Notes: generated by a model not told the origin, from the letters alone. A DNA stretch of 64,000 bases from an uncultured Clostridia bacterium (GCA_947624155.1 CANQJB010000004.1:5041-69040); one strand, 5' to 3'. Shown: positions 3,158-61,295, numbered from the stretch's first letter. Made by a program: numbers and translations.

Positions 3158-4633
3158 TCAGAACTGGAAATAGATAAACGAGCTCGCGCCGCCCGCGCTC
3201 AGAAGCACCAGCCACGCCGCCGCAATTGTCCAGATAAGATTGATATACATTCCCGCGCGGTCGGGCGAGACCGGCCCGAAGCCGGAGAATTCGCCGATTC
3301 TGAGCGCAATCTGCTTATCGAGCCTAGCGACCGAGATTATTGAAAGAATCGCAGTCGCCGCCGGCAGAAGCCCGAGTCCGAGCGCCGAGAGCGAGCCCGC
3401 GATATCGAGCCCCGCCCAGCCGGCGAAGAGAGCTTTATAGAGCAGCAGCATATCCCCGAGGCTGTTTGAGCGGAACGCCACCCAAGCGATCAGAACGAGG
3501 ACAAAGGTGTTGAACCGCTTAAGCCAAAGGAGCGGGCGAGAATCCGGCGGGACGTTCAGTCTGTTCCAAAGCGCGGCGCGCGGCTTTTCGGTCAGATATC
3601 CGATTATCTGATAGAGCCCGTGCATCAGTCCCCAGATAATATATGTCCAGGCGGCGCCGTGCCAGATTCCTGAGATCAGAAAGACAAAGAAGATGTTTGC
3701 ATACTGCCTCGCCCTGCCCTTTCGCGAGCCGCCGAGGGGAATATAGATATAGTCGGTGAACCAGGAGGTCAGGGAGATGTGCCATCTGCGCCAGAACGAG
3801 CGGATATTTACCGCAGAATAGGGGTCGTTGAAGTTTTGCATCAGCTTTATTCCCATCACCCTCGCGCAGCCGATCGCGATGTCGGTGTAGCCCGAAAAAT
3901 CGCAGTAGATCTGAACCGCGAAGAGCGCAGTCGCGATCAGAACGGTCAGCCCGTTGACCGTTTCACCGCCCGCGTTGTTATATACCGCGTCGACATAGCG
4001 GGAGATCTGGTCGGCGACGGCGATTTTCTTGAAGAACCCGACTGCCATCATCTTTAAGCCTGCGGCGGTGTCTGAGGCGCTGAAAGGGTTGTCGCGCCTG
4101 AGCTGGGGAATCAGGTTCCCTGGGCGCTCGATCGGCCCTGCGACAAGTTGAGGGAAATAGGAGACATAAAGGGCGTAATAGCCGAAATGTCGTTCGGCCG
4201 GAATATCGCCGCGGTAGACGTCGATTACATAGGAAAGGGTCTGGAATGTGTAGAACGAGATCCCGACCGGAAGCATCAGGTTGAGGGTGAAGCTGCCGAC
4301 AGGGAGTCTGAAAAGCCTCAGCAGGCCGGTGATATTTTCGGAGAGAAAGTTGAAATACTTAAAGAAGAACAGAACCGAAAGGCTCGCGAAAACCGCTGTC
4401 AGAAGAAGTAGCTTTCTGAGCTTCTTTTTTTCGGTCCGCTCGATCCCGAGGGCGCAGAAATAGGAGACCGCAGTCGTGAAGAGGATCAGATAGATAAGAT
4501 CAGGCTGCCAGCTCATATAGAAGTAATAGCTCAAAATTAGCAGCATTATCCAGCGGAACCTTTTCGGCAGAACGCGGTAGAGAATCAGAACTACCGGGAA
4601 GAAGACCAGAAACGCAAAGGAATTAAATATCAT
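3158..4633 (-). CDS. MBOAT family O-acyltransferase (AlgI/DltB/PatA-like)
   Basis: 491 aa and polytopic. Carries the conserved MBOAT histidine region ..FWRRWHISLTSWFTDYIYIPLGGSR.. and ..ISGIWHGAAW.. Confidence 0.9.
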   Translation of the reverse strand: MIFNSFAFLVFFPVVLILYRVLPKRFRWIMLLILSYYFYMSWQPDLIYLILFTTAVSYFCALGIERTEKKKLRKLLLLTAVFASLSVLFFFKYFNFLSENITGLLRLFRLPVGSFTLNLMLPVGISFYTFQTLSYVIDVYRGDIPAERHFGYYALYVSYFPQLVAGPIERPGNLIPQLRRDNPFSASDTAAGLKMMAVGFFKKIAVADQISRYVDAVYNNAGGETVNGLTVLIATALFAVQIYCDFSGYTDIAIGCARVMGIKLMQNFNDPYSAVNIRSFWRRWHISLTSWFTDYIYIPLGGSRKGRARQYANIFFVFLISGIWHGAAWTYIIWGLMHGLYQIIGYLTEKPRAALWNRLNVPPDSRPLLWLKRFNTFVLVLIAWVAFRSNSLGDMLLLYKALFAGWAGLDIAGSLSALGLGLLPAATAILSIISVARLDKQIALRIGEFSGFGPVSPDRAGMYINLIWTIAAAWLVLLSAGGASSFIYFQF

Positions 4634-53728: not shown

Positions 53729-53800
53729 ATCAGATGCATCGCTTATAAGCATAGGAAATAGCTTTTAAGAGCAAGATTTTACCGCGGGACCAAATTTGGC

Positions 53801-53892
53801 TATGCACGCGGGGTTTTGTCTGCAAGCACGAGCGGTCGGGCGTTTATGACCGCGAAGTGCGAGCAGCAACAAAACCGACTTGCATTATGCTC
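53801..53892 (+). repeat. 92-nt hairpin element, copy A
   Basis: Aligns with the reverse complement of 54195-54286 (74 of 92 positions identical by my alignment). Flanked directly by the 9-nt direct repeat AAATTTGGC (53792-53800 and 53893-53901). Confidence 0.8.
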
Positions 53893-53969
53893 AAATTTGG
53901 CGGCGCGGGAATCTTGTTGGAGTTTACTTTCAAAAAAGAAACTAAAATCTGCACCCATGTTAATTGCAG

Positions 53970-54006
53970 AAATAAGCCTTTCAGAAAACGCTGAAAGGCT
54001 TATTTT
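53970..54006. terminator. bidirectional rho-independent terminator
   Basis: aaataagcctttcag aaaacg ctgaaaggcttatttt: a perfect 15-bp stem with A/T runs. Confidence 0.75.
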
Positions 54007-54083
54007 ATGGGATTTTATGCATTATAGATACTTAACTTTTCCGCTCAATGCAGCACGCCGCACATGAGCGGTTTTTTGCTTAG

Positions 54084-54419
54084 ATTGTTATGCTTATGCT
54101 TGACACTATCTGCTCGCCGTCTGCCACAGTCCGTATCAACAGCACTGACATTCCAAAAGCAGCGGTTAGGGAGCGATTCTTGCAGCTTGACAGCGAGCAT
54201 AATGAAAGTTGGTTTTGTTGCCGTTCACACTTCGCAATCGTAAACGATTGATTGCTCGTGTTCACGGACAAAACCCCGCGTTCATACGAGTACGTCCTGT
54301 TCGCTATGGAGCGTTCAAAGCCTGAAATTAGGAATATTAGGGCATATTTACTGACTGCGTTATATAACGCTCCGGCAACAATGGACAGCTATTATTCTGC
54401 ACTCGTCAGCGAGATCTGA
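54084..54419 (+). pseudogene. 5'-truncated relic of a mobile-element replication/HTH-type gene (C-terminal motif ..IRNIRAYLLTALYNAPATMDSYY..), interrupted by hairpin element copy B
   Basis: Frame 0 reads IVMLMLDTICSPSATVRINSTDIPKAAVRERFLQLDSEH, then 84 nt containing a TGA, then YEYVLFAMERSKPEIRNIRAYLLTALYNAPATMDSYYSALVSEI*. An in-frame TAG sits at 54081 and there is no start codon. The family assignment is from memory of ICE-borne proteins. Confidence 0.6.
54195..54286 (-). repeat. 92-nt hairpin element, copy B (inverted relative to A)
   Basis: See copy A. This copy lies inside the relic ORF. The two ORF halves on either side are in the same frame. Confidence 0.8.
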
Positions 54420-54601
54420 ATTTGTAGTCAAGAGCCGAAGAAAACGCATTTTTTGGCTCGATTTAATCTTTACAATAACTCATCAAATGAGGGTATGCGG
54501 CGGGAAAATCGTAATTTTTATCAATTCAAGAGCCGAGAAAAATCGCCGAAAAACGCCCCCTTTTTGAAAATCAAGATAAATTTAAACAGGAGGTCAATTC
54601 T

Positions 54602-59530: not shown

Positions 59531-59732
59531 TCCTGCCGGAAGCCCCTTGCAGGGGGCCGATGATTTTATGCAAAAGGGTTTGCTACAATCATCCAAGGAA
59601 AGCTGCACTTCCCTTGCGCCGGTTTTCGCCGGCTATCCCTTTTTAAAATAAATCTATATTTACAGTAGAGCAGATAGTCATCAGATTATCTGCTCTTTTT
59701 ATTTATCCACAACCAGAAAGGAGCTTTTGAAA

Positions 59733-61295
59733 ATGCCTAATCCTCACTTCAACGTATCAATAACCCAGCGCAGCCGCGGGCAGTCGGCAGTTGCAGGTGC
59801 TGCCTACCAAAGCGGCGACAAACTGTTTTCAGAGTACGACCAAAAATACAAAGACAACTCGCGAAAGCAGGGCATAGTCTACACTGAAATAATGCTACCG
59901 TCAAACGCCCCTCCCGAATTTGCCGACCGAGAAACTCTTTGGAACGCCGCCGAGGAAATCGAAAAACAGTGGAACTCACAGATTGCTCGTCGGCTTGTTC
60001 TCGCACTTCCGAGGGAAGTCTCTGCCGACCAATATCCGCAGATGGTCAGAGATTACTGCAATGAGCATTTCGTTTCCAAAGGAATGTGCTGTGACTTCGC
60101 CATCCACGACCCCGACCCGCCGGGGTATAATCCACACTGTCACATTATGCTGACTATGCGTGCTTTGGACGAAAACGGAAAGTGGCTGTCAAAGAGTAGA
60201 AAAGTTTATGACCTTGACGAGAACGGCGAGCGGATACGGCTGCCGTCAGGAAACTGGAAATGCCATAAGGAAAGCACTGCCGACTGGAACGAGCAGACCT
60301 ACTGCGAGCAGTGGCGGCAAGGCTGGCAGGATATGCAGAACCGCTATCTTGAACTTACCGGAAGTCCCGAAAAGGTTGATTTGCGGTCATACGAAAGACA
60401 AGGACTTGATATTGTTCCCACTGTTCATATGGGACCTGCCGTTACGCAAATGGAACGTCGGGGAATTGCCACTAACATCGGTAATCTGAACCGTGATATA
60501 AAAGCTGTGAGCAATCTTTTGAGAAATGTACGCAAAACAATCCGCGACCTGCTTGACTGGATTGCAGAGGCTCGCAAGTCAACTAAATCGGCAGAATTAT
60601 CGTCACCGTTTCTTAGCGATTTGCTCAATAAATATCTATCTTTACGGACAAATGAGCGCGGAAATTGGTCGAGCTATGGCAAGCAGAAAGGCGCAACCGA
60701 CGACCTGAAAACCGTTTCCCAAGCGATTATTTACTTAAATTCCAAGGAACTTGTCACGCTTGACGATTTGGATAACGCTTTGCATGGCTTGAATGAAAAA
60801 GCGATACCGATCAGTGCGGAGATGAAGAGAGTAGAACGGCGTATGCAGACGATTACCGGCATACAGAAAGCTGTTGCCGACTGCAACAAGACTAAGGCAA
60901 CTCACGACAAGTATCTTAAAATAGGCTGGAAAACCAAACAAGCGGCATTTGCGGAATCTCACAAGGACGAGTTGGACAAATTTAATAAAGCATACCGTTT
61001 TCTGAAGAAACAAGGCGTGGATTTGAATGTAAATATTGACGCTTTGCAAGCGGAATATGACGGCTTGAAAGCCTCCCACGCCGAGCTTTCACGTCAGCTT
61101 GCCGCCGTCAATGAGGAGCTAAAGCCGATGAAAGATATACACCGTCGGGTGGGCAAAGGCCTTTCGCCGGAACAGTCGAAGAATGAGAACAAACCGGAAC
61201 AGAAGCTATCTATCACGGAAAAGATGAGGTATTATAAGGGAAAAGAGGAAAGGCAAGGGAAAGCAAAAGTTGTGGAAAAGGAGGTTTTGAATTAA
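59733..61295 (+). CDS. MobA/MobL (MOBQ-type) relaxase
   Basis: MPNPHFNVSITQRSRGQSAVAGAAYQSGDKL.. has the catalytic Tyr region. HUH-type motif ..FAIHDPDPPGYNPHCHIML... Long coiled-coil C-terminus. ATG at 59733 lies 9 nt after AAAGGAG. Confidence 0.85.
   Translation: MPNPHFNVSITQRSRGQSAVAGAAYQSGDKLFSEYDQKYKDNSRKQGIVYTEIMLPSNAPPEFADRETLWNAAEEIEKQWNSQIARRLVLALPREVSADQYPQMVRDYCNEHFVSKGMCCDFAIHDPDPPGYNPHCHIMLTMRALDENGKWLSKSRKVYDLDENGERIRLPSGNWKCHKESTADWNEQTYCEQWRQGWQDMQNRYLELTGSPEKVDLRSYERQGLDIVPTVHMGPAVTQMERRGIATNIGNLNRDIKAVSNLLRNVRKTIRDLLDWIAEARKSTKSAELSSPFLSDLLNKYLSLRTNERGNWSSYGKQKGATDDLKTVSQAIIYLNSKELVTLDDLDNALHGLNEKAIPISAEMKRVERRMQTITGIQKAVADCNKTKATHDKYLKIGWKTKQAAFAESHKDELDKFNKAYRFLKKQGVDLNVNIDALQAEYDGLKASHAELSRQLAAVNEELKPMKDIHRRVGKGLSPEQSKNENKPEQKLSITEKMRYYKGKEERQGKAKVVEKEVLN

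Follow-up and report, generated by a model that had tools for sequence, protein, structure and literature searches.

REPs, REPINs and MITEs have been well characterised mainly in Proteobacteria and in a few pathogens, and their copying is only partly understood. REPIN-RAYT systems in particular have been described mainly in Proteobacteria; the host of the element treated here belongs to a Clostridia lineage. A conserved GTAG tetranucleotide stands at the 5' foot of the REP palindrome, and in the IS200/IS605 family the cleavage sites are chosen by pairing with 'guide' nucleotides next to the hairpin (PMC8266576). For uncultured lagomorph-gut Clostridia, nothing comparable was found in the collections and literature searched. 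The window (the whole stretch of DNA analysed, 64 kb from an uncultured Clostridia bacterium) holds two copies of a hairpin element that, with good support, represents a new family of hairpin miniature mobile elements of lagomorph-gut Clostridia that insert without target-site duplication (TSD).

The two copies in the window

An inverted-repeat search of the window returned arms of 92 nt at 53801-53892 and 54195-54286, 80% complementary and 302 nt apart, and the core pattern GGGGTTTTGTC-N(36-56)-GCAACAAAACC occurred twice in the 64 kb against 0 occurrences expected from shuffles. A preliminary description of this DNA had aligned the same two segments in inverted orientation with 18 differences, which was reproduced at the same positions, and the stem coordinates it listed for the first copy (copy A) were all correct. 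Its element length of 92 nt was not upheld, as the mobile unit is 84 nt and the extra 8 nt are flank or target sequence. The features are collected in Table 1; the boundary of copy A was set by analogy with filled and empty sites elsewhere. The 8-nt flank TTATGCTC also lies 3' of copy B (54195-54202, where the + strand reads GAGCATAA) and starts with TT, as does the sequence 3' of every copy of the class with an ATGAA outer stem.

Table 1. Features in and around the two hairpin copies, in window coordinates
Feature	Position	Strand	Description
Carrier module, ~150-170 nt	53768..53920	.	AGAGCAAGATT...CCGCGGGA.CAAATTT, hairpin, AATTTTG...GCGGAATCTTGTTGG
Copy A, 84-nt hairpin element	53801..53884	+	model positions 1-84; outer stem ATGCA/TGCAT; type-1 interior
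8 nt adjoining copy A on its 3' side	53885..53892	+	TTATGCTC; flanking/target sequence, outside the mobile unit
Sequence common only to L039	53921..54050	+	starts right after ...CTTGTTGG
DUF6017 gene, C-terminal remnant	54090..54419	+	...LQLDSEHN, element, EYVLFAMERSKPEIRNIRAYLLTALYNAPATMDSYY...; interrupted by copy B
Copy B, 84-nt hairpin element	54203..54286	-	outer stem ATGAA/TTCAT; type-1 interior

Copy A scored 99.2 bits (E 7e-24) with a covariance model of the family and folded at -40.5 kcal/mol on the modelled strand (z -4.3); the values for copy B were 100.5 bits and -31.0 kcal/mol (z about -4). Both copies form the same hairpin on either strand, and equal folding was reached by 0-1 of 200 shuffles. 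When 53801-53892 was compared with the reverse complement of 54195-54286, twelve of the 18 differences over 92 nt fell into six compensated pairs, the other six (53824, 53838-40, 53847 and 53877) were unpaired, and no difference was one-sided, which bears out the earlier statement that none breaks a stem pair. Of the five compensated double substitutions claimed previously, the compensation stood and the count did not: a sixth, C53805/G53882 to A/T, lies in the outer 5-bp stem that had been omitted. When 18 substitutions were placed at random in 200,000 simulations, a fraction of 1.5e-5 left every pair intact, and none gave six or more compensated doubles.

Family size, fold and covariation

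A scan of GTDB, with one genome per species, located the exact core at 42 loci, 41 of which came from 15 species of 'Lapin' uncultured Clostridia MAGs (rabbit gut). A single MAG carried at least 15 of the exact-core loci and another MAG carried 8. A search of 45 sources with a covariance model built from 39 copies recovered 60, of which about 17 lie outside the exact pattern, so the lack of further copies, which the preliminary description had named as a ground for refuting its claim, was not what was observed. Pattern matches in L014 (Oceanobacillus) and in L045-L047, L049 and L050 were set aside as chance matches. True copies in the metagenome scan came from European rabbit and European hare samples only. 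By blastn the element was absent from 72,556 plasmids and 50,697 phage records, and by pattern scan from the IMG/VR viral sequences. No Rfam match overlapped copy A or copy B, even at E up to 10, in agreement with the earlier remark that the element was not recognised as a named RNA family. Copies are often clustered, with five in L034 and three in a 420-nt stretch of L036, and L001 and L008 hold inverted pairs like that of the window. The GC content of the element ranges from 0.44 to 0.61, with no AT-richness. The element is non-coding, multi-copy and dispersed.

Read on the strand carrying GGGGTTTTGTC, all copies have in common one long imperfect hairpin. The outer stem P1 (5 bp) is followed by a C/T mismatch, a GC/GC step and a GG bulge that faces one A or G; next comes stem P2 (GGTTTTGT/ACAAAACC), then P3 with 4 bp. 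An internal loop separates P3 from P4, a GA-rich one separates P4 from P5, and the terminal loop has ~10 nt. The interior is found in two forms, type 1 (CAC-GA-GCAATC...GATTGC-GAA-GTG) and type 2 (CC-GA-GGCAAC...GTTGCC-GA-GG). P1 occurs as ATGAA/TTCAT, GCAGA/TCTGC, GCATA/TATGC, ACAGA/TCTGT, ATGCA/TGCAT and TTACATGC/GCATGTAA. P2 is nearly invariant, an invariance that is in part an artefact of the search pattern and the model; it was also seen as GGTTTTGC/GCAAAACC and once fully swapped to CAAAAACT/AGTTTTTG.

Over the 39 copies of the model, 95.4% of cells pair and both sides have changed in 15 of 29 pairs; over 56 distinct copies the figures are 94.6% and 24 of 29. None of 500 shuffles matched the values of the 56 copies on any of five measures, and in a control with the partners shifted by 1-3 columns pairing fell to 28-42%. 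Sequence conservation is a feature of P2 and its adjoining loops (CGC-GG ... A-GC-T); in P1 and P3-P5 only the pairing is kept. These family-wide pair counts strongly support the selection on a folded nucleic acid that had been proposed from the two copies. In 46 of 51 copies the fold of the modelled strand is better than that of the complement; the counts of G·U versus A·C pairs (37 vs 56) do not discriminate between the strands. Copy A and its orthologue in L021 share 95% identity, their mostly coding flanks 83%, and L028 and L042 differ at 12 interior positions with identical arms. The element is constrained at orthologous loci.

Insertion sites and competing explanations

Copy B lies antisense within the DUF6017 remnant and places an in-frame TGA there. 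With the 84 nt of copy B removed, the DUF6017 profile gave a single continuous match (positions 68-142, E 6e-22); with them left in, the match broke into two stretches. The reconstructed protein had 21 plasmid-borne homologues, and the eight listed aligned without gaps over 219-228 nt. The DUF6017 gene that holds copy B is in decay and belongs to a mobilisable, integrated island. L004 and L005 account for the two other genic copies, each within a Mob_Pre (MOBV) relaxase gene, the two genes being homologous. Because the element sits at a different place in each, either gene is the empty site for the other. Removal of exactly 84 nt (TGAAAG...GCGTTCATN, in gene orientation) restored GDKDN in L005, where L004 reads GDKDN, and the same removal in the L004 gene restored VQAEK, where L005 reads VQSEK. 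The sequences directly 3' of the element in these two insertions are TTATC and TTGTA.

Two kinds of short repeat module were also found with the hairpin and, at many places, without it. One, a 31-nt REP-like palindrome (GTGGGGcACCCC-tgc-GGGGTtCCCCAC), was empty at 11 places, and its filled versions were 84 nt longer. The insert measured 84 nt in all four filled/empty contexts, and no target-site duplication was present at any of their junctions. In the ATGAA class, TT follows the element 3' on the model strand in more than 20 independent contexts and the other flank is unconstrained; on the non-model strand, the element accordingly stands 3' of ...AYAA (GATAA^, TACAA^, CATAA^). Classes other than ATGAA have a different flank. 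The exact boundary of the element carries an uncertainty of 1-2 nt; in the repeat modules, filled sites read C[84]TC and empty sites CCC. Almost every copy has a T after P1'. The element inserts precisely, as an 84-nt unit and without target duplication, and the earlier suggestion of a MITE-like mobile hairpin gains support from the copy number and from the comparison of filled with empty sites.

Only 3 of the ~60 copies are genic, all three antisense to a host gene that looks decayed and belongs to a mobile element. Since 84 is a multiple of three, an insertion never shifts the frame downstream. The L005 copy is read through and contributes 28 codons; the L004 copy and copy B each contain a stop. 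In a collection of 5.8 billion sequences, no protein shared words with the read-through peptide, which was searched together with its flanks. Because the host genes look decayed and no protein of that collection carries the peptide, no functional meaning was given to the kept frame. Translational bypassing or an intron was rejected, given the stops in two of the three genic copies and host genes that were already decayed, and so was an RPE-like translated element, given the search with the read-through peptide.

The 139 ORFs within 2.5 kb of copies matched 191 Pfam families, and no recurrent transposase was among the best 25 families listed. No neighbouring gene recurs with the element. Genes enclosed between inverted copies (dnaA-dnaN-recF, rpoD-dnaG, cdaA and similar) are all housekeeping genes. 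A search for solo arms that would mark a larger autonomous element yielded only three truncated remnants or chance matches, and neither a parent IS nor solo ends were found in ~385 kb of copy-bearing sequence. A crude motif screen of the copy-bearing loci, which cover only ~1% of the carrier genomes, and of the window detected no HUH/Y1 protein; its single match was a ketol-acid reductoisomerase. From the housekeeping neighbours together with the lack of a transposase, of solo arms and of an HUH/Y1 match in these searches, the element is taken to be non-autonomous and scattered over the core chromosome. The genes on either side of an intergenic copy may be convergent, divergent or in tandem, and copies stand in either orientation to them. 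Relative to the local coding-strand majority, used as a proxy for replication direction, the skew was weak and non-significant (19 vs 9 for all copies; 6 vs 3, p = 0.5, for the ATGAA class).

Many copies are nested in larger repeated modules of 170-490 nt. The module around copy A, itself an imperfect palindrome, recurs at six loci with unrelated outer flanks (the window, L021, L024, L031, L035 and L039) and carries either interior type of hairpin, which indicates that some of the spread is passive and that one interior can replace another while the site stays the same. As some copies have probably travelled passively in such composite repeats, not every copy is an independent insertion. The sequence that follows the module in the window (Table 1) contains a perfect 15-bp hairpin at 53970-54005 and is probably the end of a low-GC integrated island. 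Copy A, which lies ~170 nt upstream of pstS, represents an old insertion into the small palindromic carrier module, and copy B an independent one. The two are members of different sub-lineages of a multi-copy family and not a diverging pair of duplicates; their inverted arrangement is incidental.

That the 84-92 nt are ordinary coding sequence, two diverged fragments of one gene family, is refuted. Copies A and B do give similar peptides in one frame (...EHN.S.FCC.SHFA...), and the frame is open through the element in L005. The DUF6017 profile and its listed homologues nevertheless lack the segment, which removes the alternative of 'part of a gene family' that the preliminary description had itself set against its claim; the read-through peptide shares words with none of the 5.8 billion sequences, and the same 84 nt stand at two positions in relaxase genes, between genes and in both orientations. 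Hardly more credible is a role for the hairpins in the biology of the island, as an oriT, a single-strand origin or the recognition hairpin of the MOBQ relaxase at 59727-61295. The relaxase to which the hairpins had been linked as one possibility is real (MobA_MobL) and is encoded with DUF3847 ~5.5 kb away, relaxases are HUH enzymes that act next to hairpins, and copy B lies inside the island. The ~60 copies, however, stand mostly beside housekeeping genes of the core chromosome in 15 species, copy A is on the chromosomal side and in common with L021, which has no island, the plasmid and phage collections hold no copies, and the relaxase genes near other copies (L004, L005) are disrupted by the element and are not its partners. 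The distribution effectively refutes this explanation.

A small structured or cis-regulatory RNA family, with the copies as genes or UTR elements and not selfish DNA, was one of three identities proposed earlier and is disfavoured; we regard it as quite unlikely. The very strong covariation would suit it, as would the GA/GAA and GA/GA internal loops kept in both interior types and common in structured RNAs, the better folding of the modelled strand in 46 of 51 copies, and the position of copy A upstream of pstS, where it is better conserved than its flank. Yet the same covariation is expected from single-stranded DNA hairpins, the orientation relative to genes is mixed with all three genic copies antisense, copies are nested inside other repeats, no U-tract follows the hairpin, a scan found no promoter-like site next to either copy, Rfam returned no match, and the filled and empty sites show movement. 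Also unlikely is a classical MITE, an internally deleted IS whose arms are terminal inverted repeats bound as double-stranded DNA by a DDE transposase. The arms ATGAACGCGGGGTTTTGTC and the reverse complement of GCAACAAAACCAGCTTTCAT do resemble imperfect terminal inverted repeats, and the element is small, multi-copy and biased towards intergenic sites, in line with the general description of MITEs (PMC10969869). Against it, the four filled/empty contexts lack a target-site duplication, the outermost 5 bp vary and covary although conservation should peak at ends bound by a transposase, pairing of the interior would be unnecessary, ~385 kb of copy-bearing sequence holds no parent IS and no solo ends, and the element, at GC 0.44-0.61, is not AT-rich. 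Several narrower identities were also rejected. In integron attC sites the R''/R' boxes are RYYYAAC / GTTRRRY, the crossover falls inside R' and the cassette borders lie within the hairpin; the ends of the element (GATGAAC / GTTCATC-like) misfit this consensus and the borders of the insert lie outside the whole hairpin. An intrinsic terminator is not indicated, as no T-run follows the stem and a 'terminator-like' match at 54290-54275 is only part of P1/P2. The GA/GAA loop misfits the bulge-GA rule of a K-turn, and a relation to CRISPR was rejected.

The reading we prefer, and consider reasonably probable, is that the hairpins are an 84-nt non-coding, non-autonomous element that is moved in trans and has spread through the chromosomes of lagomorph-gut Clostridia. 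The mover is probably an HUH-type enzyme acting on single-stranded DNA; of the identities proposed earlier, the HUH substrate provides the best mechanistic guess. Such a trans-encoded enzyme would recognise the sequence-conserved P2 region in its folded single-stranded form and would cut and rejoin at the foot of the hairpin, in the manner of IS200/IS605 TnpA and the REP-associated Y1 transposases, which act on single-stranded DNA hairpins without duplication (PMC8266576, PMC3116915). If only copies that still fold are copied again, selection for copying competence may keep the fold, and this restriction would explain the compensatory changes across the family. A bolder proposal, to which we give little weight, is a new kind of hairpin-guided single-stranded DNA transposition, in which one long hairpin would contain both ends, P2 with its GG/A and C/T loops would dock, by sequence, an enzyme other than a classical RAYT or TnpA, and pairing between the variable P1 and the target would pick the site. 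Three observations are compatible with this proposal but do not prove it: the classes differ by covarying P1 sequences, a base of the target closes P1 under the preferred boundary, and elements with unlike interiors are found at one site, as in L028 and L042 and in the six carrier modules. Pairing of P1 with its target, if true, would amount to a naturally re-targetable insertion system.

Whatever moves it, the element offers an unusually clean data set, with a fixed 84-nt unit, exact filled and empty sites and no target duplication. One helix, presumably where the protein binds, is conserved in sequence and stands clearly apart from the helices in which only the structure is kept. The mobilising enzyme would show whether a REPIN-like 'domesticated transposase plus hairpin' arrangement exists in Firmicutes or a different class of enzyme is at work. 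On the practical side, the element interrupts mobile-element genes, gives rise to spurious ORFs and can lead the annotation and assembly of these MAGs astray, and the covariance model from 39 copies can be used for masking it.

Comparison with described systems

With classical MITEs (Correia, ERIC, RUP, BOX, QMITE; PMC10969869) the element has in common that it is miniature, non-autonomous, hairpin-forming, mostly intergenic and occasionally genic. It fails the classical definition of a MITE because it has variable outermost ends, no TSD, no AT-richness and no parent IS at the copy-bearing loci. The Rickettsia palindromic elements (PMC10969869) are likewise palindromic, with a length divisible by three and genic insertions that keep the frame. 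The present element differs in being genic in only 3 of ~60 copies, in decaying mobile-element genes and with stops in two of them, and a large protein collection gave no evidence of tolerated, expressed in-frame insertions.

The element and the IS200/IS605 family, together with the short non-autonomous derivatives known as palindrome-associated transposable elements, both insert without target-site duplication next to a short conserved flank motif, and both depend on hairpin structure and not on terminal sequence. The guide pairing of IS200/IS605 is reminiscent of the outermost P1 pair of the element, which under the preferred boundary is closed by a base derived from the target. IS200/IS605 ends, however, consist of two separate small subterminal hairpins, whereas a single uninterrupted hairpin of 84 nt makes up the element; the copy-bearing loci yielded no TnpA or TnpB gene, and the strong lagging-strand orientation bias of IS200/IS605 was not evident by the coding-strand proxy (19 vs 9; 6 vs 3).

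From REP and REPIN-RAYT systems the element departs in several respects. A REP arm is a short (20-40 nt) imperfect palindrome of its own, whereas the arms of the element, CGCGGGGTTTTGTC and GCAACAAAACCAGC, have no internal palindrome and pair with each other. GTAG is absent from the element consensus on either strand. No Y1 gene flanked by copies was detected (139 neighbouring ORFs with the families listed, and a crude motif screen, over ~1% of the genomes), and the sequence-conserved part of the element is an internal helix set between structure-only helices. The points of agreement with REPINs are nonetheless numerous. Both are non-coding, of ~80-100 nt, and present in dozens of mostly intergenic copies next to core genes (PMC3116915, PMC8266576). 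Both combine two sequence-conserved arms with a spacer that is constrained only in length and hairpin formation and in which compensatory changes are frequent; in both, most copies have no adjacent transposase, clusters occur, and the repeat apparently persists within its lineage. As part of this likeness, no flank duplication was seen for the element. The element resembles the bacterial palindromic repeats, fits no named family among them, and behaves most like a REPIN.

Putative island end at the carrier module

What looks like a mobilisable island, integrated site-specifically at the carrier module (the conserved imperfect palindrome around copy A), carries the DUF6017 remnant, ABC transporters, DUF3847 and MobA/MobL; no integrase was seen among the island ORFs tested. 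The window and one fetched locus, L039, part from the four other loci with this module (L021, L024, L031 and L035) right after ...GGAATCTTGTTGG, at its 3' edge, and share the next ~120 nt beyond the junction, where GC content in the window drops from 0.53 to 0.42. In the unoccupied form of the site a GGGGAGTAGCCTTCCCC hairpin lies at the junction point, and L021 is without the island, yet orthologous to the window on the pstS side.

Within the putative island end lies a terminator-like inverted repeat, which is kept in L039. A direct repeat was located downstream of the DUF6017 remnant, its first copy overlapping a further terminator-like hairpin.

Coordinates of junction features, repeats and compared hairpin sites
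Feature	Location	Remarks
Divergence junction	window about 53921-53931	within 53921-54050
L039 counterpart of window 53921-54050	about 40-165 nt 3' of L039 copy at 3724-3810	
Perfect 15-bp inverted repeat (AAATAAGCCTTTCAG/CTGAAAGGCTTATTT)	window 53970-54005	6-nt loop, then TTTTAT
Direct repeat TCAAGAGCCGA(A)GAAAA	window 54428-54444 and 54526-54542	spacing 98 nt
Terminator-like hairpin	window 54432-54459	
31-nt REP-like palindrome	L034:642, 1082, 1468, 7970; L022:90, 630, 4350; L038:6602, 6699; L029:7958; L009:6746	
Hairpin pair compared for interior	L028:2623-2709 vs L042:6849-6935	
Carrier modules compared for hairpin interior	L021/L024 vs L031/L035/L039	

Genomic settings of the hairpin copies

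The genome Lapin-025__bin54 also holds many copies of another repeat, a REP-like palindrome of 31 nt that is rich in GC (GTGGGGcACCCC-tgc-GGGGTtCCCCAC) and forms a second family. In hairpin copies of the 'GCAGA' class, named for the outer stem, the 84-nt element is inserted in the 3' arm of this palindrome, and other classes are flanked by other short GC-rich palindromes (GGGGCTTCGCCCC, GCCCCGCAGGGGC); nested palindromic repeats seem abundant in these genomes.

Copies also border the dnaA-dnaN-recF region of Lapin-025__bin54 (L009:1286-7537): a single minus-strand copy precedes dnaA, and two plus-strand copies lie downstream of recF. At this one locus, orientation switches across the likely replication origin. 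Such a flip is the pattern expected of strand-specific insertion, here only as an anecdote.

At L004:5770-6993 (-) and L005:1260-2387 (+) the hairpin interrupts relaxase genes of the MOBV (Mob_Pre) type. The N-terminal catalytic region (MKRTISAMVGKGSVNHNSR...) is present in the former and missing from the latter, which is therefore probably a pseudogene despite an ORF that remains open across the hairpin.

Variant copies and possible exchange of the interior

In two variant copies (L034:6803-6889, minus strand, and L034:428-497, plus strand) the internal helix P2 is swapped to CAAAAACT/AGTTTTTG and the interior GCAC..CAATC...GATTG..GTGC is retained. These hint at sister sub-families of the hairpin invisible to the search pattern used, and the true size of the family may therefore exceed that counted. 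A 3' fragment of a copy (L032:3643-3662, GCAACAAAACCGGCTTTCAT) stands directly upstream of a complete copy (3663-3749); it could be a copy truncated at its 5' side, or the end of an older copy next to which a new one inserted in tandem.

At the orthologous or paralogous sites compared, hairpins have identical arms and differing interiors: type 1 against type 2, or interiors that differ at 12 positions. The pattern suggests replacement or conversion of the interior while its site stays fixed, as opposed to slow compensatory drift alone.
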